Of a DNA stretch of 64,000 bases, positions 279 through 50,013 are shown piece after piece. The position numbers and the translations under genes are program-made. Numbering within the stretch: the first letter of the stretch is position 1; each line of letters begins with the position of its first letter. The stretch covers positions 11,348 through 75,347 of the forward strand of contig JABIAL010000007.1 of the NCBI GenBank assembly GCA_018653315.1, written 5' to 3'. The notes beneath the pieces were generated by a model that ran no database searches, was not told the origin of the DNA, and was given only the letters and a program-made list of their open reading frames with translations. The DNA comes from a bacterium. GTDB lineage: Bacteria > Patescibacteriota > Patescibacteriia > UBA1558 > GWA2-36-10.

Positions 279-668
279 ATGTCATTAATACCATGGAGTC
301 CCTTTTTGGACACTTTTGAAAATTTGGAAAATACAGATTTTTTGCCGGCTATCGATGTTTATGAAGATCATGATCAAGTCATAGTTGAGGCAAGTTTAGC
401 TGGTATTAGCCCGGAGGACGTCAATATTTCCGTTAAAGATGATATTTTCAATCTAGAAGGCACTCGTCGAGAAACTTCAGAGATAGATGAAAAAAACTAT
501 TACCGCAAAGAAGTGCGTACCGGGTCTTTTCATCGCTCAGTTATTTTGCCGGCTTCAGTACAAGCCGATAAAGCTGAGGCTAATTTTGATAACGGATTAT
601 TGAAAGTAGTTTTACCAAAAGAAGCTCACGCTAAATCTAAAAACATTGAGATTAAAATTAAAAAATAA
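279..668 (+). CDS. Hsp20/alpha-crystallin small heat-shock protein
   Basis: The alpha-crystallin-domain pattern is present (AIDVYEDHDQVIVEASLAGI...GSFHRSVILPASV...GLLKVVLPK). It lies between grpE and dnaK. Confidence 0.85.
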   Translation: MSLIPWSPFLDTFENLENTDFLPAIDVYEDHDQVIVEASLAGISPEDVNISVKDDIFNLEGTRRETSEIDEKNYYRKEVRTGSFHRSVILPASVQADKAEANFDNGLLKVVLPKEAHAKSKNIEIKIKK

Positions 669-1007: not shown

Positions 1008-2987
1008 ATGGGAAAAATTTTAGGAATCGATTTAGGTACTACTAATTCAGCCTTCGCTATTATCGAAGGTGGTCAACCAAAGATTTTGGAAAACAAAGAA
1101 GGTAGTAGAACTACTCCTTCTATGGTCGCTATTTCAAAAAATGGTGAACGCTTAGTAGGTATGCCGGCTAAACGTCAGGCAGTAACCAATCCAGAAAACA
1201 CAATTTTTTCAGTCAAGCGTTTGATCGGACGTAAATTTAGCGATGAGGCAGTAGCTGAAGATATCAAGACCGTGCCTTACAAAATTGTTCAGGATGGCGT
1301 GGGTGTAAAAGTTGCTATGAGTGGCAAAGATCATAGTCCACAAGAAATTTCTGCTATGATTTTGCAAAAGATCAAAGCTGATGCTGAAAGTAAATTAGGT
1401 GAACCAATCACCGAAGCTGTTATTACTGTGCCTGCTTATTTTGATGATTCACAAAGACAAGCTACCAAAGATGCTGGTAAAATTGCCGGTTTAGAAGTAA
1501 AAAGAATTATAAACGAACCAACAGCAGCAGCACTAGCTTATGGATTTGATAAAAAGAAAGATCAACAAGTAGTTGTTTATGATCTGGGTGGTGGTACTTT
1601 TGATGTTTCTGTTTTAGATGTTTCTGCAGATACTGTAGAGGTAAAGTCTACAAATGGCGATACTCATTTGGGTGGCGATGACTTTGATCAAGTTATTATC
1701 AAATGGATTTTGGAAGAATATAAAAAACAAGAAGGATTAGACTTATCCAATGATAATTTAGCTTTGCAAAGACTGAAAGAATCAGCTGAAAAAGCTAAGA
1801 TTGAGCTTTCTTCTTCTATGGAAACTGAAATCAATCAGCCATTTATCACTACTGATGAATCTGGTCCAAAGCATTTGGTGATGAAAATGACTCGTGCTCA
1901 ACTAGAAGATTTAGTTGGTGATTTAGTGACTAAGACTTTAGAGCCATGTAAAAAGGCTTTAGCTGATGCTAAATTAGAGGTCAAAGATATTGAGGAAGTT
2001 ATTATGGTTGGTGGTATGACTCGTATGCCACTTGTCCTAAAGAAAGTTGAAGAATTTTTTGGCAAAAAACCAAATGTTTCTGTAAACCCTGACGAAGTAG
2101 TAGCCTTAGGTGCAGCTGTACAAGCTGGAGTTTTGCAAGGTGATGTCAAAGATGTTTTATTGCTAGACGTAACTCCACTTACTTTGGGTATTGAAACTAT
2201 GGGTGGTGTCCGTACTCCATTGATTGATCGTAATACAACTATCCCAGCTTCAAAAACTCAGACCTTCTCTACTGCCGCTGATAGTCAGCCCAGTGTAGAG
2301 ATCCATGTCTTACAAGGTGAACGTGAGATGGCAGGGGATAATAAAACTTTAGGTAGATTTACTTTGACTGGTATTCCTCCAGCACCACGTGGTGTTCCTC
2401 AAATTGAAGTAAGTTTTGATATTGATGCTAATGGTATTTTGCATGTCAAAGCTGTAGATAAAGGAACTGGTACTGAACAAAAGATTACTATCCAAGCAAG
2501 CTCTGGTTTATCTGATGCTGATATTGAGAAAATGCAAAAGGATGCTGAGGTTCATGCTGATGAAGATAAGAAAAAGAAAGAAGCAGTGGAAACTCGTAAC
2601 TCTGCTGATAATATTGTTTTCCAAACTGAAAAATTTATCAAAGACAATGGAGATAAATTTAAAGAAGAAGATAAAAAAGAAATGGAAGACAAAACTGAAG
2701 CTCTTAAGAAAGTAAAAGACGGCGAAGATTTAGAAGCTATTAAAACTGCTACTAAAGATCTGGAAGAAGTTGTCCAAAAGATTGGGGCTGCAATGTATCA
2801 AAACCAATCAACCGAACAATCTAAGCCAGGTGAAGCTGATCCAAATGCAGATGCTGCTTCAGGTGAAGAGAAGAAAGAAGACACAGCTGAAGGCGACTTC
2901 GAAGATGTCAAACCATCCTCCGCCGAGGCTACGGATGGCAGGGAAGAAGACAAGAAAGAAGAAACTAAAACAGAAGAAACTAAATAA
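1008..2987 (+). CDS. dnaK: molecular chaperone DnaK (Hsp70)
   Basis: Hsp70 signatures are present: [24 protein letters not shown] and the [14 protein letters not shown] substrate-binding-domain motif. The protein is 659 aa. Confidence 0.97.
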
Positions 2988-4075
2988 TGTCCAAAGATTA
3001 TTACAAAATATTAGGCGTAGAAAAAAGTGCTTCGGCTGATGAAATAAAAAAAGCTTTTCGTAAAGTAGCTCATGAACATCATCCTGACAAAAATAATGGT
3101 CAAGATGAAAAGTTCAAAGAAGCCAATGAAGCTTATCAGACTTTGAGTGACAAAAGTAAACGCGCTCAATATGATCAATTTGGCAGTGCTTTTTCTGGTG
3201 GCCAAAGTGGTTTTGGCGGTGGTAATCCATTTGGGCAAGGCTTTGGCCAAGGTGGCGCTCAACAAACCGACTTTGATTTTGACTTAGGAGATATCTTTGG
3301 TAGTTTTTTTGGTGGACAAGGAGGCCAAGGTGGTGCAAGAGCTGGCCGGACTCAACGCGGATCTGATTTAGAAGTGAATTTAGAAATTACTTTGAAAGAA
3401 GCTGTCTTTGGTGTAAGTCACAATGTTTCTTTGCAAAGAAAAAGTCAGTGTCAGCCATGTCAGGGTACAGGTGCCAAAGAGGGTACTTCTTTTGATAAAT
3501 GTCCGACTTGTGATGGTGCCGGCCGAGTGACGACAACTATTTTGGGACAATTCCAGACACAGACTGCTTGTCCAGAATGTAGAGGCCAAGGTAAAAATAT
3601 TAAAGATAAATGTGGCGCTTGTAGTGGTCAAGGTATCACTGTCGAACATCAAGATATAAAAGTAGAGGTACCAGGTGGTATCGACACTGGTCAGTCTATT
3701 CGTCTCAGTGGACAAGGGGACAGTGGTGTTAATGGTGCGTCTGCTGGAGACTTGTATGTCAATATTCTCGTCAAACCTCAAGCTGATTTGGTGCGTGAAG
3801 GTTTTGATCTAATTTCTGAAATCAAAATTCCATTTACCATTGCAGCGATGGGCGGTGAAATAAAAGTAAATACAATAGACGGAAAAGTAAAATTAAAAAT
3901 CCCAACTGGTACTCAGAGTAATAAAAAATTTATTCTTCGCAATAAAGGTGTTACTAAATTGAAAAGCAGAGGACGAGGTGATCAGATTGTGATTATAGTT
4001 GTTGATGTGCCGACAAAACTGTCTAGAAAGCAGAAGAAACTTTTAGAAGAGTTGAGTAAAGAGTTGAATGATTAA
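2987..4075 (+). CDS. dnaJ: co-chaperone DnaJ
   Basis: It has a J domain with HPD (HHPDKN), a Gly/Phe-rich linker, four CxxCxGxG zinc-finger repeats and a C-terminal domain. Its start overlaps the dnaK stop. Confidence 0.95.
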
Positions 4076-9705: not shown

Positions 9706-10251
9706 TCATTTTCCATTTCTGTAGGTGACACCAAGCTTGAAGACATCTGTTAAGATTTCTTCGAATGCCTCAAGGCTATCCTGCATAAATTCCAGGCTGC
9801 ACATGAGATCAAAGGCGTCTCCAAGATCGTCTCTGGTGAAAGATTTGAACGCAATTACGTTTTCATCTCCACCGGCAAGCTTGATTTCTGTTTGAACTTT
9901 TTGGGGGGACGTAAATGGCGTAATAAACACATCAATGCTTCCGTCTAATTCGGAAGCAGCTAGATTGAAAGTGTCAGACACCTCTTCGTCCCTCGTTTCT
10001 CTCGTACTCGTTAGCTCTGCCTGAGCTACGGTCAGAATGCGAACATCTACTGCAACTGGGGTTTGCTTAGCTGATCCGATGACAAAGTCAACGTCGAGCC
10101 CTGAAGCAAGAGCTTTTTCACCTGAGAAGGCAATAAGCTTTTTACTGTTGAGCGGATGACCGTTTTCATTGACCCTGATTTTCCACAGTTTTTTGCCGTG
10201 GGCTCCAGGGTCTGATCCGACCACAAAACCTTTTACTCTTTCCTGAGTCAT
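9706..10251 (-). CDS. hypothetical protein (possible N-terminal OB-fold-like region, acidic C-terminus)
   Basis: 181 aa, translationally coupled to the REC gene and with the same high-GC composition. No confident family. Confidence 0.45.
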   Translation of the reverse strand: MTQERVKGFVVGSDPGAHGKKLWKIRVNENGHPLNSKKLIAFSGEKALASGLDVDFVIGSAKQTPVAVDVRILTVAQAELTSTRETRDEEVSDTFNLAASELDGSIDVFITPFTSPQKVQTEIKLAGGDENVIAFKSFTRDDLGDAFDLMCSLEFMQDSLEAFEEILTDVFKLGVTYRNGK

Positions 10252-10397
10252 GATTCTTTCTCCTTTTTCCTTTTTACCTTTTTCCTTTTGGACTACTGCC
10301 TGTAATCCACCTTTTTAAAGAGCTATTCCCAAACCGGGGAATAATCAAAAGTAACATTTTTGTTTAATTTTGTCAATAGTAGCTAAAAATGCTTGAA

Positions 10398-10426
10398 TTG
10401 CCTGTTTATTTCAGTGGTGGTAAAAT
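10398..10426 (+). promoter_or_regulatory. sigma70 promoter, copy 3 of the plus-strand cassette
   Basis: Reads TTGCCT-17-TAAAAT, 24 nt upstream of the ATG at 10450. Confidence 0.6.
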
Positions 10427-10449
10427 ATATGTAATATTAACATAAAAAT

Positions 10450-11217
10450 ATGACTAAAGATTTAACGAATCAATTCTTTGACATTAATAAATTTCCAACT
10501 GAGGAAGGAATGCTTGTTTTTCCTATCTCCATGAGTCGCATTAGCAATGAATCGCAAAACGCTAAGAAATACTGGGAATATGTTAATTTTATCAATCCGA
10601 GCAAAGTCGATAAATCAAAAGCCGAATCAAAGGTTGGAGTAATTTTTATTTATGGAGATTATTTGTATCTGCATTCAGATGAAAAAGCTAGCGTTCTCAA
10701 GAGAAGATATATGGATTTAGTAACTACCCACAGAAATTCTTTTGGAAATTTACTTAAAAGTGACTCCCATTTAATCAATGATGGTTTTTCATATAAAGTT
10801 TGGAATCAATTTTATGTTGACTATGGTAGATTCATTTATTATTTTGAAGAATTAAAAAAAATCTACCAAAAAGATAAAGAATTTCAAAAATACATAAAAG
10901 AAGATTTTGATAATTTAGATAATAAAGATCTTAAGCTTGATGATAACCAGATAAATTTTTTCTTAGAAGAGCACCTGATGCTTCATTTAATTACTAAAGG
11001 ACAGATGAAATTAGAGAATAAATTTATTGATGGGCGTGAAAAGTGGATTTTAATGTCTTACCCAGGCAAGCCACTCAAAGCTCATATTTATTTACATCAA
11101 AAGAATTTTTTCAAATTAGATAATCCAAAAAATGTTTATCAAGATTCGTGGTATGACTTAGAAGGTAAAAAACTTTATGATTATAAAAAAATAGATTTAG
11201 AAACTGTTAAATTATAA
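10450..11217 (+). CDS. hypothetical protein, paralog B of the MTKDLTNQFFDINK family
   Basis: 255 aa, colinear with the ORF at 7922-8677. Confidence 0.55.
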   Translation: MTKDLTNQFFDINKFPTEEGMLVFPISMSRISNESQNAKKYWEYVNFINPSKVDKSKAESKVGVIFIYGDYLYLHSDEKASVLKRRYMDLVTTHRNSFGNLLKSDSHLINDGFSYKVWNQFYVDYGRFIYYFEELKKIYQKDKEFQKYIKEDFDNLDNKDLKLDDNQINFFLEEHLMLHLITKGQMKLENKFIDGREKWILMSYPGKPLKAHIYLHQKNFFKLDNPKNVYQDSWYDLEGKKLYDYKKIDLETVKL

Positions 11218-11231
11218 GAAATAAAATTATT

Positions 11232-11546
11232 ATGGAAATAAAAGAATTACAAAAACAAGCCTCAGAAATTTTTATAAATAATTCTAAAAGAGATGGTATC
11301 AAAGTTGATACAGATTATTTAATTTTAAAATTAACAGAGGAGCTTGGCGAGTTTGTTCAATCTTATATAGTACACGAAAGAAGATGTCGTCCAGCAAAGT
11401 ATTTATCTGCAAAAGAAGCTAAAAGAGAATTATCTAAAGAGCTAGCCGATGTTTTGGGTTTAGTTTTTTCAATTGCAGACAAATGTGATATCGATATCGA
11501 AGAAGCTTTAGTTAAAAAATGGATAACCAAAGAGTGGATTAAATAA
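11232..11546 (+). CDS. MazG-like nucleotide pyrophosphohydrolase (small all-alpha NTP-PPase)
   Basis: Contains LTEELGEF...ELADVLG..., which is the EExGE / ExxD pattern of short MazG-type proteins. It is 104 aa. Confidence 0.5.
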   Translation: MEIKELQKQASEIFINNSKRDGIKVDTDYLILKLTEELGEFVQSYIVHERRCRPAKYLSAKEAKRELSKELADVLGLVFSIADKCDIDIEEALVKKWITKEWIK

Positions 11547-11552
11547 TATAAT

Positions 11553-11822
11553 ATGGAAATAAAATTAATAAAAAAAGACGAAAGAGGCACAAAATATCAA
11601 GCCGAAGGCTTTAAGATTTTTTATAGAGATAAAAATACCATTACCGGCGATAACGCTGAAAATGTAGCAGAGTTAATATACTTCATTACTGGTTCAGCAG
11701 AAATTACTTTAGAAGATAAAACTTGGGTAGTTGAAGCTCCGGCTAAAGTAGAATTTCCCGCCAAAACTTATCATAAAATCAAGGCTTTGACGGACGTAAG
11801 TTTTATTTTATTTGAGAAATAA
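11553..11822 (+). CDS. hypothetical small protein, cupin-like beta-barrel (weak)
   Basis: 89 aa. The residue pattern is compatible with a small cupin. Weak call. Confidence 0.3.
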   Translation: MEIKLIKKDERGTKYQAEGFKIFYRDKNTITGDNAENVAELIYFITGSAEITLEDKTWVVEAPAKVEFPAKTYHKIKALTDVSFILFEK

Positions 11823-21469: not shown

Positions 21470-21632
21470 CAATTGAATAAGAATTATCAAGAGTACGGGG
21501 AGAGTTTTGGCTCAATGATCCGTCAGCAACCTGTTTTTTAAATAAGGTGCTAAGTCCAACCCTCAAGTGGGAAGATGATGTTTGGTCGTATTAACTTTCC
21601 TTTTGGGGAAAGATTTTTTAATTTTAAAATAA
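21470..21632 (+). promoter_or_regulatory. SAM-I (S-box) riboswitch with intrinsic terminator
   Basis: The S-box core matches: uUAUCAAGAG...GGGGAGAG..UGGCUCaAUGAuCCGuCAGCAACC...AAGGUGCUAAguCC...GAAGAUGAug. The P1 3' strand GAUGA pairs with UUAUC. The terminator is ctttcc-ttttgg-ggaaag followed by TTTTTTAATTTT, directly upstream of metK. Confidence 0.8.
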
Positions 21633-21638
21633 AAGATT

Positions 21639-22646
21639 ATGTTAAAGACAGCAGAAAATGTAACTTGGGGACATCCAGATAAAGTATGTGATCAAATATC
21701 TGATGCTATTTTAGATGAGTGTTTGCGTCAAGATAAAAATAGTCGAGTGGCTGTAGAAACGGTTGGTGGCCATGGTAAATTGTTTATTGTCGGTGAATTA
21801 ACTACATTGGCTAAATTTGATGCAGCCAAGATAACTCGACAAGTGTATAAAGATATTGGCTATACGGATGATTTAGATATTACTGTACATTTAGTACATC
21901 AGAGCCCAGATATCGCTCAGGGAGTCGACGTAGGGGGCGCAGGTGATCAAGGAATCATGGTCGGCTATGCTACAGCAGAAACTGTAGAAAATTTACCACT
22001 AGAACATGTTTTGGCAACAAAATTAATTCGTCGTTTAGAATTTGTGCGAGCAGATAAGAATAATCAATTATCTCAATTTTTAGGACCAGATGGTAAAGCT
22101 CAGGTGACTATAGAAGATGACAAAGTAAAGACAGTAGTTTTATCTACTCAACATACAGATAATATCAGCCAAGGTGTTTTGCGGCAGTTAATTATAAAAG
22201 AAGTTATTAAGCCAATCATTCCAGAATATGATGAGGTTCATATTAATCCGACTGGTATTTTTGTACAGGGTGGTTTTGAGGCTGATTCTGGTTTGACTGG
22301 CCGTAAAATAACGATCGATAATTATGGACCACAAGTGCCAGTCGGTGGCGGTGCTTTTTCTGGAAAAGATCCTTCAAAAGTAGATCGTTCAGCTGCTTAT
22401 ATGGCTAGATTTTTAGCGGTTAAATACCTAAAAAAATATCAAGCTAAAGAAGTGCTAGTAAAATTAGCTTATGCTATAGGTAAGAAAGAACCAGTGATGG
22501 CCATGGCTTTATTAGATGATAATCGGCTGATAAAAATAGAGGATCATGATTTATCTCCGCAGGGTATTATTGATTTTTTACGCTTAGATAAGCCACAATA
22601 TAGGGATCGGGCTCGCTTTGGTTTCTTTAAAAATTTTATTCAATAA
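21639..22646 (+). CDS. metK: S-adenosylmethionine synthetase (short form, 335 aa)
   Basis: Contains GHPDKVCDQISDAILD, GAGDQGIMVGYA and GGGAFSGKDPSKVDRSAAY. The C-terminal part is shorter than in E. coli MetK. Confidence 0.9.
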   Translation: MLKTAENVTWGHPDKVCDQISDAILDECLRQDKNSRVAVETVGGHGKLFIVGELTTLAKFDAAKITRQVYKDIGYTDDLDITVHLVHQSPDIAQGVDVGGAGDQGIMVGYATAETVENLPLEHVLATKLIRRLEFVRADKNNQLSQFLGPDGKAQVTIEDDKVKTVVLSTQHTDNISQGVLRQLIIKEVIKPIIPEYDEVHINPTGIFVQGGFEADSGLTGRKITIDNYGPQVPVGGGAFSGKDPSKVDRSAAYMARFLAVKYLKKYQAKEVLVKLAYAIGKKEPVMAMALLDDNRLIKIEDHDLSPQGIIDFLRLDKPQYRDRARFGFFKNFIQ

Positions 22647-23145: not shown

Positions 23146-25323
23146 TTATTTTTGCTCGTAGTTATAAATAAAAATATAGGATTTATCTTGGCCAACTACA
23201 AAATAATCATCAGCTGTTTCTTTAGCTTGATTTATAGCTTGTTTAGCGGAGTGCCAGTAGTTATTAACTACAAAATATAATTTATTAACTCCAGCTTTAT
23301 CCATGGCCAGCTTAGCTTCTTGATGACTAGCTTGATGTTCGATCATATTTAGATAATTTTGATAAATATTATTATTACCTAAGGGCATGGAGTAATAAAA
23401 GTTGTCATTATAGTAATGTACAAAGCCATAGGCATCAATAGCAGCGGCTCCGACCATTTGATTAGCTAAAACGATATAATCTTGATCATTGGATGATTGT
23501 TCTATTAGACGGACAGTTTCCACATCGACAGCTGTGATGTTAAAACTTTTACTATTTGAGTGACGGTCGTAAGTAGGATAGCTAAAATAGGTACTGATTA
23601 TTATAATCATAACAGTAATTGCACCGATCCATATTTTATAACTCAAGTTTTTTTGTTTTGCTAAAATATTATGCCACCAAAAATACCAAGTGCTTAAAAA
23701 TATTGGCATTACACTCAACCCAATTAAATAAATGATTCTTAGTAAATAAGCATTCTGTTCATAGTCTATTTGATTTGAAAAAGAGATAAAGACACGAGCT
23801 AAGATGTAATTACTTAATAATATACTTAACAACAGCCAGTGTTTATTAAAAAATAAATACTTATGTTTTTTTACTATAATCAACCAGCCAAGTAAAACAA
23901 TTATTATAAAAATCAGAGCATAATTATTCCAGATATTATGTATCAAGTCGATAGGGAAATTATAACTATTAACTAGTTTCGGCCAAGACCAATCAATTAA
24001 TGGCCAAGGATGCCAAGTAAATATTCGTGACCAATTTTGTCCAGCTAATCTCTGATAAAGCGCAAGTGCTGTTGGTAAACTAATAGCTGATAAGAAAACT
24101 ATGATAGCATGGATGTATTTTTTGAATTTCTTTTTTATTTTCCAATAGCGGATAGATAATAGAAGACTCATGTATAAAATAGGAATACCACCCAGAGGAT
24201 GGATAGTTAGCGTTCCAAGACCAATAATCCAGCAAAAATATAGACATTGTTTATGTTTTTTGATTACAGGTAATATAAATATAAATGTAGCTACCAAAAG
24301 AAAAGCTAAGTTTTGAGGAGTGGTTATGATAGCGAAATTAAATCCAGCAAACAAACTTAGCAAAACAGCTAGTAAACTGATCTTGCGAGGCCAGCGAAAG
24401 CCTTTATTTAGGCCATAATACAGGCTATGTGGCCATAAAATACTAAAAGCGATTGGTAAGACCAGTTTGTTGATAGTAGCGATTGGGAGCTGCCACAGGG
24501 AGTGTAAAAAGAAAGTCCAACTATACTGACCTAGGTATAAAAATAAACGAGGTTGGATGGTACTAGTTTTGTCTATCACTTCCATGGCTGCTTGATGTAG
24601 AAATGGATCATAGCCAAAACCAAGTGGATAAACCAACCAGGCGACACTAGCTAAAATAAAAAAGTGAATACTAGTTAAAAATAGTACGATGGTTGATTTT
24701 TTATTTTGGATAGTCATGATGACTAGTAAAATGCTAGCCACGATAAGCAAAGTCCAAAATTTATAACCCAATAATTCCCAAGGAGAGCGAATTATTTCTA
24801 CACTAGATCTTCTGGTTAATAAAATAATGGTCAGTAGCTCTGTTATCAAAAAAAGAGTAGGTAGAATTATATTTTTGATATTAGCCAAGCGGATACTTGG
24901 GATATCCAAAGTAGTAAAAAAATAATGTTGTTTATTTAAACGCCAAGACCAGAATTCAATGATTAGAGGAACACTAATTAAGGCAAATAAAAAAGTAATG
25001 GCGTTGATTTGCCAAACATGATAAAAAAGAGTGTAAATAATACTAAAGTATAGTAGTATTGTTAACCAGCCCAAAACATTACGAAAATTCCCAGAGATAT
25101 GGATAAATAGAATGTCGCCTAATTTTTTGCTATTAAGAGTAAAAAATAATAAACTAACAATAATACCCAAAATGGGCCAATGTAAGAATTGCCAATTTAT
25201 AATTAATAAGGCCAAAGACAATGCCTGTAAACTTATATGTTGAGTTCTATTAAGGGTAATCATCACTAACAGTTTAACATAAGTTTGGTTTTTTGTTAAA
25301 ATAAAGATATGGTGTTTAAACAA
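23146..25323 (-). CDS. large polytopic membrane protein with C-terminal extracytoplasmic domain (possible GT-C-like glycosyltransferase or polymerase)
   Basis: 725 aa. At least 14 TM helices are followed by a ~170-aa soluble domain. No specific family was recognised. Confidence 0.35.
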   Translation of the reverse strand: MFKHHIFILTKNQTYVKLLVMITLNRTQHISLQALSLALLIINWQFLHWPILGIIVSLLFFTLNSKKLGDILFIHISGNFRNVLGWLTILLYFSIIYTLFYHVWQINAITFLFALISVPLIIEFWSWRLNKQHYFFTTLDIPSIRLANIKNIILPTLFLITELLTIILLTRRSSVEIIRSPWELLGYKFWTLLIVASILLVIMTIQNKKSTIVLFLTSIHFFILASVAWLVYPLGFGYDPFLHQAAMEVIDKTSTIQPRLFLYLGQYSWTFFLHSLWQLPIATINKLVLPIAFSILWPHSLYYGLNKGFRWPRKISLLAVLLSLFAGFNFAIITTPQNLAFLLVATFIFILPVIKKHKQCLYFCWIIGLGTLTIHPLGGIPILYMSLLLSIRYWKIKKKFKKYIHAIIVFLSAISLPTALALYQRLAGQNWSRIFTWHPWPLIDWSWPKLVNSYNFPIDLIHNIWNNYALIFIIIVLLGWLIIVKKHKYLFFNKHWLLLSILLSNYILARVFISFSNQIDYEQNAYLLRIIYLIGLSVMPIFLSTWYFWWHNILAKQKNLSYKIWIGAITVMIIIISTYFSYPTYDRHSNSKSFNITAVDVETVRLIEQSSNDQDYIVLANQMVGAAAIDAYGFVHYYNDNFYYSMPLGNNNIYQNYLNMIEHQASHQEAKLAMDKAGVNKLYFVVNNYWHSAKQAINQAKETADDYFVVGQDKSYIFIYNYEQK

Positions 25324-26118: not shown

Positions 26119-27444
26119 ATGCAAAACAAAAAACAAAAAATGCATGTTGTTACTGTTGATATGGGTTACGGCCATCAACGAGCAGCTTATCCTTTAGCGT
26201 CAGTTAGCGCCGGAGGAGTTATTAATGCCAATCAATATAAAGGCATCTCTAAGAATGAGGAGCGTTCTTGGCAGAAGGGTCGTAAATGGTATGAAATAAT
26301 TTCTCGTTTTAAAAAAGTGCCTATTTTAGGTGCGGTTGCTTTTGCGATGATGGATAATTTTCAAAAGATAGAACCTTTTTATCCACGACGTGATTTGTCT
26401 AAAACTTCTTCTCAACAAAGATATTTTTATAAAAAAGTTAAAAAAGGTCTAGGTAAAGATCTTATTACTACTTTAAATAAAAAACCTATTCCATTGGTGA
26501 CTACTTTTTTTGTGCCAGCTTATTTTGCTGAATACTGTAATTATGAGGGACAAATTTATTGTGTGGTTTGTGATGCTGATGTAGCTAGAGCTTGGGCACC
26601 CCATGATGCTAGGCATAGTAAAGTCATTTATTTAGCGCCAAATAAGCGTGTTAAAGAGCGTTTACAGCTTTATGGTGTACGGCCAAACAAGATTTATGTT
26701 ACGGGCTTTCCTTTACCAAAAGAGAATATCGGTGGTTTGCAACAAAAGATTTTAAAAGCCGATCTTAAAGTTCGTTTGTGCAATTTAGACCCTAAAGGAA
26801 TTTATCGCCATAAGTACAAGAATTTAATTGGGGCATACCTGTGTCCAGTTAGTGAATTACGCGCTAAACCAAAAGGAGTAACGATTACCTTTGCCGTTGG
26901 TGGCGCTGGTGCTCAACGAGAAATCGGAGTCACTTTATTACGGGTGCTTAAAAAACATATTAAAGCTGGTCGAATAAATTTAAATTTAGTAGCTGGCGTG
27001 CGGAATGATATTTATCGTTTTTTTGAAGAGGCGGTCAAACGATATGGTTTAGCTAATGCTAATAATGTTAATATCATCTTTGCTAATAACAAATACGATT
27101 ATTTTAAGATTTTTAATCGAGCTTTAAGAACAACAGATATTTTATGGACCAAGCCATCTGAGTTAACTTTTTATAGCGGTCTTGGTTTGCCGATTATCAT
27201 GGCTCCACCGATTGGCTCACAGGAAAAGTATAATCGTGATTGGCTGCAAGCTTTGGGAGCTGGTATTGATTCTGAGAATCCAGAATATGTTGATGAGTGG
27301 CTTTTTGATTGGCTAGATTCTGGTTGGTTAGCAGAAGCGGCCATGCAGGGATATTTAGATGCTCCTAAAATGGGCACCTATCATATAGAAAATATTGTTT
27401 TACATAATAAAGTAGAGGAGATAAAAGATGTTCAATTGTTATAA
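26119..27444 (+). CDS. GT28-family glycosyltransferase, MGDG-synthase/UgtP-like (glycolipid synthase)
   Basis: The N-terminal motif is HVVTVDMGYGHQRAA (G-x-GH). Also present are IYVTGFPLP and the C-terminal GT28 pattern ITFAVGGAGAQ...TKPSELTFYSGLGLPII...GSQEKYNRDWLQALGAGI. Confidence 0.6.
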   Translation: MQNKKQKMHVVTVDMGYGHQRAAYPLASVSAGGVINANQYKGISKNEERSWQKGRKWYEIISRFKKVPILGAVAFAMMDNFQKIEPFYPRRDLSKTSSQQRYFYKKVKKGLGKDLITTLNKKPIPLVTTFFVPAYFAEYCNYEGQIYCVVCDADVARAWAPHDARHSKVIYLAPNKRVKERLQLYGVRPNKIYVTGFPLPKENIGGLQQKILKADLKVRLCNLDPKGIYRHKYKNLIGAYLCPVSELRAKPKGVTITFAVGGAGAQREIGVTLLRVLKKHIKAGRINLNLVAGVRNDIYRFFEEAVKRYGLANANNVNIIFANNKYDYFKIFNRALRTTDILWTKPSELTFYSGLGLPIIMAPPIGSQEKYNRDWLQALGAGIDSENPEYVDEWLFDWLDSGWLAEAAMQGYLDAPKMGTYHIENIVLHNKVEEIKDVQLL

Positions 27445-28781
27445 TGAAAATTACTACACTACATATTAATTTATACAAAAGCATCAAGCAACCGATTAGT
27501 TTTTCTGCTTTGCCGGTCAATATTTTGATTGGTCAAAATAATTGCGGTAAGAGTAATATCTTATATGCTATTGATTACTTATTTGATGTACAGGGAGTTA
27601 GTCCTATTTTAGAATATCCAGGAGCTGATATTGAAGTAGAATTAGTTTTCACAGAAGAAGAATTGGATAGATGGAATTTACCAAGTAAAACAGCTAGTTT
27701 AACTATTAAAGATGAAAAAAGAAAACTAGCCTTTTCTAATCAGATTGTAAATTATAATGGTAATTGGAAGGATTTATTATCAGTCAAAATTAAGCATTTA
27801 AATTATGATGCTTTTAATGATTTAGAAGCGGTCGATAAAGATTGGCAAAGTTTGCAACAGCACAAAGAACATTTTAATAAATTTAAACAACATTTAAAAA
27901 ACCATTTTCCTAAAATTAGTGCCAAAGAAAATGCTTTAGATATTCATTATGAGCATGCCGGTATAAAAGAGGGGACACGTAAAGCTACTATTGATCATTT
28001 AGGTTCTGGTTTTCGTCGTATTTTTACTACTTTATTGTATATTTTTCATCCAGATTATCACATAGTTATTTTAGATGAACCAGAAACACATTTGCATCCA
28101 GTGCTAGTTAAGAAACTTTTATGGGCCATGCAAAATGCAGAAGGTGGTGGACAAATATTTTTTACCACTCATTCTCCTTTATTTATTAATTCAGTCACTT
28201 TACCGCAGGTATTGCGAGTAGTTAAAGATAGTGCTACTACTAAAGCTTTTGGTTTGCCAGTTAAAAAACAGCATTATAGTTATAAGCGTTTGATCCAAGA
28301 ATTGAATGCCGACAATGTTGAGATGTTATTTTCTGATACAACTATTTTAGTAGAGGGTATTTCTGATCGTATATTATTACGTGGCTTGATCGATCATTTT
28401 TATCAAGGTAATAAAGATATTAAAGTTGTGCAAACACATGGTAAAGGTAATATTGCTTTGTATGTAGATTTGTTAAAAATTTTTCATATTAATTATATTA
28501 TTTTAGCTGATAGAGATATTATAAAATATCAATTAGATAGAGTGATAAGTCATTTAGGGATAAAACCAAAAGCACGTAAAGCTAATGATTTAATTATTGA
28601 GCTTAAAGAATACAATGTATTTATTTTACCAGGCGGTTCAATAGAAAAACACTATCCAAAGAAATATCAGCGTGATGATAAAAAAACACTTAATGCTTTG
28701 TATGCGGCAACTGCTATTACCAAGACAGAATTTAATTCAAAAATAATGAAACCCTTGAAAGAGATAATAGATAGATTATAA
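27444..28781 (+). CDS. OLD-family (overcoming lysogenization defect) ABC-ATPase + Toprim nuclease, class-1-like single gene
   Basis: Walker A is NILIGQNNCGKSNIL and Walker B is VILDEPETHLHP. The C-terminal Toprim has TILVEGISDRILL and ILADRDI (DxD). The start overlaps the upstream stop as TAATG. Confidence 0.7.
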   Translation: MKITTLHINLYKSIKQPISFSALPVNILIGQNNCGKSNILYAIDYLFDVQGVSPILEYPGADIEVELVFTEEELDRWNLPSKTASLTIKDEKRKLAFSNQIVNYNGNWKDLLSVKIKHLNYDAFNDLEAVDKDWQSLQQHKEHFNKFKQHLKNHFPKISAKENALDIHYEHAGIKEGTRKATIDHLGSGFRRIFTTLLYIFHPDYHIVILDEPETHLHPVLVKKLLWAMQNAEGGGQIFFTTHSPLFINSVTLPQVLRVVKDSATTKAFGLPVKKQHYSYKRLIQELNADNVEMLFSDTTILVEGISDRILLRGLIDHFYQGNKDIKVVQTHGKGNIALYVDLLKIFHINYIILADRDIIKYQLDRVISHLGIKPKARKANDLIIELKEYNVFILPGGSIEKHYPKKYQRDDKKTLNALYAATAITKTEFNSKIMKPLKEIIDRL

Positions 28782-43752: not shown

Positions 43753-43974
43753 ATGGATAAATTAAATAAAATTTTAGATAAAATTCGTCCTAGCTTACAG
43801 GCTGACGGAGGAGATATAAAATTAGTAAGCTATGATAAAGCTAAAGGGATAGTAGAAGTGGAATTACAAGGTGCCTGTAAAGGTTGCCCAATGGCTCAAT
43901 TTACTTTACAAGGATTAGTAGAGCAGGAAATAAAAAAAGAACTTCCTGAGGTTAAGGAAGTTCGAGCGGTTTAA
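43753..43974 (+). CDS. NifU-like (Nfu) Fe-S cluster scaffold/carrier domain protein
   Basis: Contains ...ADGGDIKLV...GACKGCPMAQFTL..., which is the CxxC Nfu motif. Confidence 0.8.
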   Translation: MDKLNKILDKIRPSLQADGGDIKLVSYDKAKGIVEVELQGACKGCPMAQFTLQGLVEQEIKKELPEVKEVRAV

Positions 43975-43980
43975 TTTTCT

Positions 43981-44847
43981 TTAAGCAATTTTAAATTTGT
44001 CGTCTTTTTGGACAATGGTGATTTTCAATACATTTTGTAAAATATAAGGATCAATGCCCCAATTAATTAAACACTCTAGGCCATTTTTTAAGTCACTATT
44101 TGGTAAATAAGCAATAACTAATTGATCGGTCATAGCAGCATTAATTGTAGATTTAGCTATTCGTGGACCAGTAATTTTTGATATCATTATTACATCTGGC
44201 TGGTGACGGAGTAATTTTTCTAAATGTTGGCAAACCTCATCGTCTTGCCAATTTTTTAATTGCTGTTGATGGATGCCAGGTAAAGGGCGCTCGATGAAAT
44301 CTTCTAAAGTAAAGATATCTAGGTGTTCATTATCTATTTGTTCTAATAAAGCATAAAGAATTTTATCTTTGTCTAATAATTTTATTTGAGTTAATAAAAT
44401 AAGCCCGTTTTTTTGTTTTAGAGTTTTTTGCATTTGCTCAAAATCTTTTTTACTAAGGGCTAACTTATTTAGCTTGTTATCATCCAAAATTTTGATCGTG
44501 ATTTTGTTACCTTGAAATTTTGGCCAAAAGCTAACAATTAGATTTTTATCAATTTTGCCAATTTTTATTTTAAATCGTCCTTCTTGCGGTAAATTTTGAT
44601 TATCTGAAAGATTAGCTAGTTTTTTTAGATGTACATCCAGGATATTTATCCAGGCTACTGGTAAATCTTTAATTTTTTGTAAGTGGCTAGCAATACGATA
44701 ACGTAAATTTAATTGATTATTATCATTTTCCAAATGAATACTGCTGGCTTGATTTTTTATAGCATCATTTAATAATGTATCTAAGATATTTTTAGCGGAT
44801 GATGATTTAGATTTTATCAAAGAGCTAAGGCTAACATTTTTATTCAT
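43981..44847 (-). CDS. PilB/GspE-like pseudo-ATPase (degenerate Walker A and B)
   Basis: It aligns by eye to the T2SS/T4P ATPase core: ASSIHLE (compare ASDIHIE) and ...PQEGRFKIKIG.... Where GPTGSGKT should be, it reads LTQIKLLDKDKILYALL. The Walker B aspartate box reads QPDVIMISKITG, with E changed to K. It is 288 aa, against about 560 aa for active enzymes. Confidence 0.5.
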   Translation of the reverse strand: MNKNVSLSSLIKSKSSSAKNILDTLLNDAIKNQASSIHLENDNNQLNLRYRIASHLQKIKDLPVAWINILDVHLKKLANLSDNQNLPQEGRFKIKIGKIDKNLIVSFWPKFQGNKITIKILDDNKLNKLALSKKDFEQMQKTLKQKNGLILLTQIKLLDKDKILYALLEQIDNEHLDIFTLEDFIERPLPGIHQQQLKNWQDDEVCQHLEKLLRHQPDVIMISKITGPRIAKSTINAAMTDQLVIAYLPNSDLKNGLECLINWGIDPYILQNVLKITIVQKDDKFKIA

Positions 44848-45009
44848 AGTTTTATATTATCTAGTCTAATAAGTATATTATACTTCTGTTTGTAAAATAT
44901 TACCACCCAATTTCAATTTAGACCTTTGTTTAGCTTATAAAATGGTATAATATTTTTGTTTTTTGGAGGATAGATTTTTTAAACAAAATATGTTAAAATA
45001 AGAATAAAT

Positions 45010-45369
45010 ATGCTGAAATTAAATAAATTTAAGGTTTTTTATAAAGACCGATTAAATTTTTGGCTGATAAATATTACAATGCTATTGGTGGTGGCCAGTT
45101 GGCTGGTATTTTTATTTAAACCATTAAAAGCTAGCCCTTTGGCTATTTTGCATTATAATATTTATTTTGGTTTTGATGTAGTTGGTAATTGGGTTTGGTT
45201 AATTTTGATTCCAGTTATTGTATTAGTATTGTCTTTGATTAATACATATTTAGCAGCTTATTTATGGACCAAAAAAGCTATTTGGAGTCATTTTTTATTG
45301 ACTCTAAATTTTTTGCTTAATTTTATGATTTTTATTTATCTTTTTAATATTTTAAATTACAACTTATGA
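45010..45369 (+). CDS. hypothetical small membrane protein
   Basis: 119 aa with 4 TM helices, located upstream of mraY. Confidence 0.4.
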   Translation: MLKLNKFKVFYKDRLNFWLINITMLLVVASWLVFLFKPLKASPLAILHYNIYFGFDVVGNWVWLILIPVIVLVLSLINTYLAAYLWTKKAIWSHFLLTLNFLLNFMIFIYLFNILNYNL

Positions 45370-48987: not shown

Positions 48988-50013
48988 ATGAAATTATCTA
49001 ATAAAATTTTTCGGCTAAGCTCAAGACGGGTCGGGTTTACTCTGGTAGAGCTTTTAGTAGTGATTGGTATAATGGTTATTTTGTCAGGAGTCACTTATGT
49101 TGGTGTTTCAGAGATTAGACAAACAATTAGAGATAGTAAGCGTAAAGCAGATTTACATCAATTAGCTAGAGCCTTAGAGCTATTTAAAACAGATTATGGT
49201 CAATATCCATCTAATAATCATTATAGCATGCAAGAATATACTGGTGTTGATTGGGAAGAGGGTGCCAACGAAACTATGATGCCATTTTTAGTAGAAGGGG
49301 GAGAATTAACGTTAATCCATGGAACCATCAGTGGTCCTGTGCCCGAAAACACCACAGTTCAAGGTGGTTATCTTGATGACTACATCAAAGATCCGATTAA
49401 CCAACTAAATAGTTGGGATGCAGGTGACGACGACGATAACGTAATTCATCATCATGTTTATTTGTATTGGGGCCCAACTTATTGGGTTTTCGATGTTACA
49501 GAGTGGGCCTTTCCTTGGCCACTTGATTGTTCATCGCCAACTGCACCACCACCCGATGATTGTGGTGAATTAAATCCAAATAATGAAGCGGCTATCAATT
49601 ATCAAAATTGGAATAACTGTTGTGACAGTGGTTGTTTTGATTGTACTTTTACTGAGCCTTACTTGAGCTGGAATACTACAAATCAATCTGGGTTTTCTGA
49701 TTGGTGTTATGGTATGGATAGCAATCGCGTGCTAGTCCTTTTAGCTGCTGATTTAGAGAATGAATCAAAGCCGGAGGAGAGGATTAATAATGTATTGTCT
49801 TTTTGTCCAACAGCTAGTGGCACGCTTGAAGAACAAGCCTTATTTTTTAATTTTAAAAGATATTTTTATAGAGGAAAAGATTGTTATGAAGGTCCAGGTG
49901 GTGGTGCTACAAGTGGTGCTAGTTGTGACGATGGTGGTGGTGATTGGTCTTCTTGGGGCGGTAATAGACATAATTATTTTGTTCCTTTGACAGGAGAATA
50001 TGATCTAAACTAA
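48988..50013 (+). CDS. type IV pilin-like protein (class III signal peptide) with large Cys-rich C-terminal domain
   Basis: The N-terminus MKLSNKIFRLSSRRVG/FTLVELLVVIGIMVIL has G-1, F+1 and E+5. It is 341 aa with 14 Cys in the C-terminal half. It is embedded in the dcw cluster. Confidence 0.8.
   Translation: MKLSNKIFRLSSRRVGFTLVELLVVIGIMVILSGVTYVGVSEIRQTIRDSKRKADLHQLARALELFKTDYGQYPSNNHYSMQEYTGVDWEEGANETMMPFLVEGGELTLIHGTISGPVPENTTVQGGYLDDYIKDPINQLNSWDAGDDDDNVIHHHVYLYWGPTYWVFDVTEWAFPWPLDCSSPTAPPPDDCGELNPNNEAAINYQNWNNCCDSGCFDCTFTEPYLSWNTTNQSGFSDWCYGMDSNRVLVLLAADLENESKPEERINNVLSFCPTASGTLEEQALFFNFKRYFYRGKDCYEGPGGGATSGASCDDGGGDWSSWGGNRHNYFVPLTGEYDLN

Follow-up and report, generated by a model that had tools for sequence, protein, structure and literature searches.

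ORF X encodes a minimal PilB/GspE-family protein

The open reading frame (ORF) considered here, which we call ORF X, lies on the reverse strand of a 64,000-nucleotide stretch of contig JABIAL010000007.1 (contig positions 11,348 to 75,347, assembly GCA_018653315.1; this whole stretch is referred to as the window), between the rmlA and nifU genes on one side and the genes for a 119-amino-acid (aa) protein, mraY, murD and ftsW on the other (Table 1). It is a real gene, and its product is clearly homologous to the PilB and GspE assembly ATPases of type IV pili (T4P) as well as type II secretion systems (T2SS), comprising an N2 domain (N2D) and a RecA-like core. The protein matches the Pfam family T2SSE (PF00437) with 135.9 bits (cutoff 24.9; E=1.8e-39) over profile positions 6-276 of 370, and its best sequence matches in the structure database are the cores of PilB, GspE and PilF (E=1e-26 to 1e-30), with which it is colinear at 26-32% identity; the PilT structures match with E values of 1e-4 or weaker. 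With an AlphaFold2 model computed from the alignment of the family (pLDDT 76), Foldseek returns PilB, EpsE and PilF as top hits at probability 1.0, which shows the two-domain fold of N2D and RecA-like C-terminal domain (CTD); domain orientation limits the TM scores to 0.5-0.6. A preliminary description of the locus had called ORF X an intact opposite-strand ORF in this very position and PilB/GspE-like in character, and on both counts it is borne out.

The protein is shortened at both ends. Compared with the 561-aa PilB encoded in the same genome it is short by about 165 aa at the N-terminus and by about 115 aa at the C-terminus. No match to the N1/MshEN (GSPII) domain was found in ORF X, and its alignment to the genome's own PilB begins at PilB residue 165. 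The C-terminal segment that is wanting corresponds to the tetracysteine Zn-finger and the C-terminal helical subdomain: ORF X terminates where the CxxC...CxxC region of its PilB counterpart starts, about 39 residues past the His-box position, in a short β-hairpin (VQKDDKFKIA). Hence, whereas the earlier account was right about the homology and about the length of 288 aa, what it labelled an N1/N2 core is N2D plus the RecA-like first part of the C-terminal ATPase domain, with N1/MshEN wholly absent, and what it took for a missing C-terminal half is a loss from both termini. A split gene was considered and rejected, as the convergent nifU gene lies 6 bp downstream and no C-terminal half is encoded there; a tblastn search of the window with ORF X likewise found no second T2SSE fragment. 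A recent duplication of the genome's own PilB was also rejected, since ORF X is 28% identical to that protein and no closer to it than to Geobacter PilB.

None of the established subfamilies accommodates the protein. Its best NCBIfam matches are the models for GspE, PilB and ComGA, all of them far under their equivalog cutoffs. Scores against the GspE and PilB models are 150.6 bits (cutoff 630), 144.3 bits (617) and 143.7 bits (676), and the model for TfpB, an active second extension motor, gives 130.7 bits against a cutoff of 850. The PilT/PilU model TIGR01420 scores 44.4 bits, its subfamily cutoff being 319.1, and no TadA/CpaF model appears among the NCBIfam matches at E<=10. Similar in architecture is ComGA, the active ATPase of the competence pilus with intact Walker motifs, which is likewise a naturally short member of T2SSE that lacks N1. 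The ComGA model (NF041000; 267 positions) aligns end to end with ORF X (positions 2-263, E=2.9e-34), but ORF X reaches only 118 bits of the required 300 and has lost the catalytic motifs.

Table 1. Features of ORF X and its surroundings, in window positions
Feature	Position	Strand	Description
ORF X	43981..44847	-	288 aa, ATG start; minimal PilB/GspE-family protein, predicted catalytically degenerate
N2-domain part of ORF X	44473..44847	-	approximately residues 1-125; boundary approximate, from the alignment to Geobacter metallireducens PilB (GmPilB) and the family columns
Truncated ATPase-domain core of ORF X	43984..44472	-	approximately residues 126-288
Former Walker A	44365..44388	-	GPTGSGKT (GmPilB G325-T332) replaced by QIKLLDKD, residues 154-161
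Asp box, retained	44290..44307	-	LEDFIE, residues 181-186
Former Walker B and catalytic Glu	44167..44205	-	RQDPDIIMIGEIRD replaced by HQPDVIMISKITG, residues 215-227
Former His box	44092..44130	-	TGHLVLSTLHTND replaced by TDQLVIAYLPNSD, residues 240-252
Terminator-like hairpin	43939..43963	-	9-bp stem and T-run, 18 nt past the ORF X stop
Divergent intergenic region, ORF X / 119-aa-mraY operon	44848..45009	.	162 bp
Gene for 119-aa protein with multiple transmembrane segments	45010..45369	+	end overlaps mraY start; divergent from ORF X in every genome with ORF X
Pilin-like gene	48988..50013	+	341 aa, prepilin motif GFTLVELLVV; Pfam N_methyl 3.3e-5; between ftsW and murG

The catalytic site is replaced by a conserved alternative set of residues

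Functional residues were mapped by HMMER alignment to GmPilB, for which residue roles have been assigned (PMC5424180), and then along the columns of the family alignment. Like the structurally characterised motors PilB, GspE (EpsE) and PilF (PDB 5TSG/5TSH, 5ZFR, 1P9R, 5OIU), ORF X belongs to PF00437 and keeps N2D and the RecA-like CTD, the N2D hallmarks (ASSIHLE at residues 34-40, LRYRI, PQEGRFKIKIG at 87-97 and GNKITIKIL), the Asp box and the equivalent of R257 (R91, R or K in the family). Unlike them, it has neither the N1/MshEN domain nor the tetracysteine Zn-finger and C-terminal helical subdomain, and the catalytic set, that is, the Walker A glycines, R271, the catalytic glutamate, the pore-loop aspartate and the His-box histidines, is replaced throughout.

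The Walker A motif of ORF X has lost all three glycines, replaced by Q, L and D/E, and GxxGxGK[ST] is degenerate in all members of the family; a six-frame search for G-x4-GK[ST] found no such motif in ORF X. The Walker lysine position is occupied by K160, which is invariant across the family and stands between a conserved acidic residue and N or D. The glutamate following Walker B (E395 of GmPilB) has become K224, with K or N family-wide, and the pore-loop residue D398 is represented by G227, an invariant glycine. In the His box, H413 is exchanged for Q, N or T and H420 for proline (P249), within an invariant YLP. The arginine finger R271 is lost (I104 in ORF X; I, G or S in the family), and R286 is conservatively replaced by an invariant lysine, K119. 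On the other hand, the Mg-coordinating E357 of GmPilB has its counterpart in E186, and every member of the family has E or D at this position. The replacement of GPTGSGKT had already been pointed out and is confirmed by the alignment. The same holds for a glutamate-to-lysine change ascribed to the "Walker B/Asp-box", although the site was mislabelled: it is the catalytic glutamate that is changed, while the Asp box with E186 is retained. Several of the new motifs are themselves invariant or nearly so within the family, namely FWP, [DE]-K-[ND], GIHQQQ, H-x-PD, I-x-GP and YLP.

From these replacements we infer that ORF X cannot hydrolyse ATP, and very probably it does not bind ATP either. In GmPilB, R257 and E357 make a contact at the open subunit interface, whereas the closed interface with bound nucleotide is where R271, T327, T411, H413 and H420 act (PMC5424180). 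The retention of the R257 and E357 equivalents together with the loss of those of the closed-interface residues R271, T327, H413 and H420 would be consistent with a subunit locked in a state that resembles the open, nucleotide-free one.

ORF X is conserved and under purifying selection

ORF X is kept under purifying selection; it has not arisen by error, nor is it a pseudogene in decay. Ten contigs, from assemblies of NCBI, JGI, ENA and Logan, encode the identical protein, which also stands in two records of metagenome-assembled genomes (MAGs) at NCBI (MBT4349296.1 and MBT4649493.1), and over 10,390 bp the window is matched without a difference by a contig of an independent assembly. A further 10 clusters formed at 90% identity are 39-69% identical to ORF X, most of them with 288-297 aa, and a more distant member (P0027; 286 aa, 34% identity) has the same ends and the same degenerate motifs. 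Conservation in relatives thus extends over orthologs of 34-69% identity that measure 286-297 aa and carry the same replaced motifs, and nowhere among them is a canonical P-loop restored. The ratio of nonsynonymous to synonymous substitution rates (dN/dS) of ORF X against the closest genome is 0.118, as compared to 0.04-0.23 for its housekeeping neighbours, even though ORF X is among the faster-evolving genes of the neighbourhood. Given the base composition, the probability that 288 codons stay free of stops under neutrality is about 1e-11, and neither a frameshift nor a stop was seen in more than 10 divergent orthologs. Of the two signs of decay named in the preliminary description, frameshifting and absence in relatives, the first was thus never encountered; the second does occur, in two genomes discussed below. 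Judged by its residues and their conservation, ORF X would accordingly qualify as a pseudoenzyme, a catalytically dead homologue that is retained by selection, and we propose that it should be filed as a T2SSE-family pseudoenzyme and not as PilB, TadA or ComGA.

One ortholog stands apart in its N-terminus. In P0005 (322 aa) the first approximately 35 residues are swapped for a thioredoxin-reductase-like FAD-binding segment (MYDIIIIGSGPAGWTAA...), which is either a real fusion or truncation or else an assembly chimera.

Distribution and origin of the family

In a deep profile search of 1.84 billion representatives the short form of ORF X was recovered in 3 clusters only at 50% identity. The family is restricted to one clade of Parcubacteria within the candidate phyla radiation (CPR), exemplified by Parcubacteria group bacterium GW2011_GWA2_36_10. 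Two MAGs that carry it (L008 and L009) are labelled "uncultured Gammaproteobacteria", yet their gene content and relatives are Parcubacteria-like. Every genome with ORF X, down to 34% identity, has it in the order nifU, ORF X, 119-aa gene, mraY, murD, ftsW. For a survey of outgroups the 119-aa neighbour was aligned and JGI metagenomes were scanned with it, which yielded 247 relatives, and 80 loci were inspected for what lies opposite the 119-aa gene. Genome L026 cleanly lacks ORF X, with HIT-nifU followed after 43 bp by the 119-aa gene and mraY, and in L029 the slot is occupied by unrelated small ORFs. As L026 is nested within the ORF X-bearing clade in a neighbour-joining tree of MraY, the absence there is a secondary loss. 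The gene is therefore dispensable, and any role it has is non-essential.

In the outgroup genomes L086 and L087 the place of ORF X, divergent from a 120-aa/mraY operon, is taken by a canonical 574-aa PilB gene followed by pilC and pilM; in L041 a pilC-pilB pair lies one glycosyltransferase gene away from a 119-aa-type locus, whereas L057 and L068 have no T2SSE gene in the slot. With canonical pilB operons occupying the slot in outgroups, the most economical explanation is that ORF X is, plausibly, the remodelled descendant of a dcw-adjacent pilB. Then again, ORF X is equidistant (28-32% identity) from all PilBs tested, the one of its own genome included, which weighs against this derivation in so far as its evidence is positional and sequence comparison cannot confirm it.

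A different degenerate T2SSE protein is found at the equivalent place in Candidatus Kerfeldbacteria (P0193/P0194; L092:2943-4181, reverse strand), where related L041 has its canonical pilB upstream of the 119-aa/mraY operon. With 412-431 aa (412 in L092) and 67% identity between two genomes, it resembles ORF X in its dead P-loop (GEDPRALKDT) and in lacking N1, and it too is without a Cys4 motif, but unlike ORF X it still has the catalytic glutamate and the His box as well as the C-terminal subdomain. Its identity to ORF X is 26%, and it scores 70 bits on the profile of the ORF X family, that is, less than canonical PilBs (146-166 bits), which argues for an independent degeneration.

Two other groups of PilB-like proteins came to light in these searches. 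Proteins of about 1000 aa with two T2SSE stretches, which ranked next to the family itself in the deep profile search, were taken up as a possible fusion of an active with a dead unit, and this lead was rejected because both halves have an intact Walker A; their high profile scores result from the summation of two domains. They (P0013-P0026) consist of two complete tandem PilB units, each with intact Walker A and Cys4 motifs, and thus represent covalently duplicated pilus motors. The PilB-like protein P0028 (573 aa) contains its N2 domain twice, by internal duplication; its P-loop is intact (GPEGSGKT), while its Walker B/catalytic glutamate region (VVMIVDISRPE) and His box (LAGLTSS) are degenerate, making it another partly dead PilB variant.

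Genes and signals around ORF X

The hairpin behind ORF X lies antisense within the last codons of nifU (encoding ELPEVKEV). It is present in the window and in L008 and L001, the three closest genomes, whereas in L026, which lacks ORF X, it is broken by synonymous changes that leave the encoded NifU C-terminus unchanged. Its presence in the closest three genomes alone led us to reject it as a family-wide feature; in this small sample, the pattern is suggestive of a dedicated terminator of ORF X and suggests that ORF X is monocistronic and forms its own transcription unit. The intergenic region upstream contains only weak σ70-like promoter matches, no commoner there than in shuffled sequence.

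The product of the divergent 119-aa gene has no Pfam match. Its family is broad in the CPR, the 247 relatives from the JGI scan standing mostly without a T2SSE neighbour, and at nearly all loci the gene is followed by mraY or, about 2.2 kb downstream, by a gene for a MraY/WecA-like glycosyl-1-phosphate transferase. Possibly the protein is a small partner of polyprenyl-phosphate transferases that has so far gone unrecognised.

Further downstream, the pilin gene that had been reported nearby does exist as a pilin-like gene with an N_methyl motif. Its insertion between ftsW and murG is specific to the ORF X-bearing clade, the ftsW-murG gap of outgroups being 21-66 bp, but L003 possesses ORF X and lacks the dcw pilin.

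The genome also contains an intact PilB, on the same contig as ORF X, in a canonical PilB-PilC-pilins-PilM cluster. The cluster was reached through P0189, an exact member of the PilM cluster, at locus L020, where the gene order is response regulator, PilB (561 aa; MshEN and T2SSE), PilC, four large pilin-like/Laminin-G proteins, PilM and two pilins, followed by an ABC/FtsX exporter, HrcA, GrpE and HSP20. Within L020 the coordinates are 279-1964 for PilB, 1998-3203 for PilC and 10001-11740 for PilM. Since HSP20 corresponds to window positions 279-668, pilB is placed about 17-18.5 kb before window position 1 and about 62 kb from ORF X. An exact-match DNA scan of JGI metagenomes for an upstream extension of the contig gave no match, and the representative PilM (P0161), which differs by one residue, led to a 2.3-kb contig only. 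The motifs of this PilB are all canonical (GPTGSGKTT, EDPVEY, DPDIMMVGEIRD, TGHLVLSTLHTND, CxxC...CxxC and GRMGIFEV), and it is 53% identical to the Geobacter core as compared to 28% to ORF X. A sister genome whose ORF X ortholog is 60% identical has the T4P cluster in an equal arrangement on one 318-kb contig. As to the composition of the cluster, the response regulator at its head carries a Zn-ribbon, in the sister genome a CheA-like kinase comes before the cluster, and the four pilin-like/Laminin_G_3 proteins between pilC and pilM measure 440-682 aa (L020:1-9945 region).

Elsewhere in the window, on the forward strand, a SAM riboswitch (Rfam RF00162, 63.7 bits; 21481-21581) stands directly upstream of an S-adenosylmethionine synthetase gene (21639-22646). 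A gene for a 441-aa DUF6938 protein (26119-27444) is followed, also on the forward strand, by one for a 445-aa OLD-like nuclease with AAA_21/AAA_15 and TOPRIM domains (27444-28781), which has the sole canonical G-x4-GK[ST] motif of the whole window; the pair may be a two-gene defence module. A 725-aa ORF on the reverse strand (23146-25323) has no Pfam match at E<=0.01.

Discussion

All indications are that ORF X is a lineage-specific pseudo-ATPase of the PilB/GspE family, and of this identity we are confident. That it serves as a non-catalytic and dispensable accessory or regulator of the pilus motor is the role we favour, and the statement as a whole has, in our estimate, an even chance of being correct. 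ORF X would then act by protein-protein contacts through its preserved N2D/CTD scaffold. It could insert into or cap PilB hexamers, giving a mixed ring, or alternatively build a static ring and so compete with PilB; in both cases, pilus extension would be modulated but not powered by ORF X.

Several observations weigh against such a role. The known docking elements of PilB are the N1 domain, which in the GspE of the T2SS binds GspL (PDB 4PHT, among the matches of ORF X), and a conserved acidic pore loop, which has been proposed to engage PilC (PMC5424180). ORF X has lost both, so that a canonical docking on the machine is unlikely. Moreover, the gene is encoded apart from the T4P cluster and always beside cell-wall genes, and the clean loss in L026 and the absence from L029 have to be reckoned with.

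But could this constant association with cell-wall genes reflect the actual function of ORF X? The protein may have been co-opted from pili to a role in the cell envelope or in division, together with the 119-aa protein and MraY and/or the dcw pilin-like protein; it could, for example, serve in the cytoplasm as the scaffold of a short pseudopilus that is linked to peptidoglycan synthesis. The invariance of the gene order in every carrier keeps this explanation alive, as do the confinement of the ftsW-murG pilin insertion to the ORF X clade, the distance of 62 kb to the canonical T4P cluster and the missing docking determinants. However, the whole region of 20 kb is collinear among the genomes with ORF X, and adjacency to cell-wall genes therefore carries little functional information. 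The occurrence of ordinary pilB operons at the equal spot in outgroups accounts for the position of ORF X by ancestry. In addition, the 119-aa family is far broader than ORF X and mostly has no T2SSE neighbour, L026 keeps the 119-aa gene and mraY without ORF X, L003 has ORF X without the dcw pilin, and the co-distribution of pilin and ORF X amounts to a single phylogenetic event. We therefore consider co-option to the envelope unlikely, though it is the most serious of the alternatives.

Somewhat less probable still is that ORF X works as a sensor or switch, and not as an inert scaffold, its remodelled pocket still accommodating a nucleotide or a different small ligand. The invariance of K160, the conservation of E186 (E/D), R91 (R/K) and K119 in place of the arginine finger R286, and the invariance of the substituted residues around the old active site (YLP, GP, QQQ and FWP) point to selection on the pocket and not to neglect. 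Nevertheless, the P-loop has Q, L and D/E in place of its three glycines, the lysine comes after an acidic residue, N or D stands for the Mg-binding threonine, and the arginine finger R271 is gone along with both His-box histidines. By established P-loop chemistry, changes of this kind should block phosphate binding.

We regard it as very unlikely that ORF X is what remains of a former pilB, without function and slow to decay. The gene has vanished without trace from L026 and been replaced in L029, it belongs to the faster-evolving genes of its surroundings, and degenerate T2SSE genes recur at the equivalent CPR locus, as one would expect of a relic. A dN/dS of 0.12, on par with essential neighbours, is not, and neither are a frame of 288 codons that neutrality would keep open with a probability of about 1e-11, the lack of frameshifts and stops in more than 10 divergent orthologs, or the conservation of length, termini and new motifs. 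Finally, nothing was found to support an artefact of sequencing or assembly behind which a canonical P-loop would be hidden, and this explanation is refuted by the identical sequence in 10 contigs of independent assemblies and two NCBI MAG records, by the agreement of an independent contig with the window over 10,390 bp and by the degenerate motif common to all orthologs.

How would a regulatory pseudo-ATPase compare with known partners of motor ATPases? A conceptual analogue is ArlH (FlaH) of the archaellum, a RecA/KaiC-like protein with impaired catalysis that accompanies the motor ArlI without being a motor itself. It differs in being KaiC-like and not a T2SSE protein, in binding ATP and in being encoded in the archaellum operon. 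In bacteria, PilZ, FimX and CpiA are cytoplasmic modulators of the extension motor, acting in the mode proposed here for ORF X, but they are not homologous to the motor ATPase and none of them is derived from it; cofactors and inhibitors of PilB are reviewed in PMC11656802 (see also PMC8213720). Within the literature searched, the coverage of which is incomplete, we found no description of a conserved, selection-maintained, dead paralog of PilB, GspE or PilT, and the ORF X pseudoenzyme, which belongs to uncultivated organisms, is apparently unreported.

Going beyond the regulatory role favoured above, the short dead PilB and the pilin-like gene between ftsW and murG can be imagined to form a new module built from type IV pilus parts, an idea that we put forward as a long shot. 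In one version ORF X, as a nucleotide-free mimic of the open state of PilB, would be a clutch or brake on the PilB motor and could, for instance, enable motor-independent retraction. In the other, it would link a pseudopilus with how these ultra-small episymbionts make peptidoglycan and divide.

For annotation the consequences are more immediate. Public records name the family "Flp pilus assembly complex ATPase component TadA" (MBT4349296.1 and MBT4649493.1) or "PilB", and counts of pilus motors in CPR genomes are inflated by such assignments to active ATPases. The second, independent degenerate T2SSE at the equivalent locus of Kerfeldbacteria moreover suggests that the "death" of PilB paralogs is recurrent in the CPR. 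The attachment of CPR bacteria (Patescibacteria) to their hosts, and the exploitation of these, is believed to depend centrally on type IV pili, and of this machinery it is the motor ATPases that are understood best. If ORF X indeed mimics one of the motor's conformational states and thereby modulates it, this would represent a principle of regulation new to type IV filament machines, and ORF X would offer structural biologists a natural "frozen" PilB subunit.

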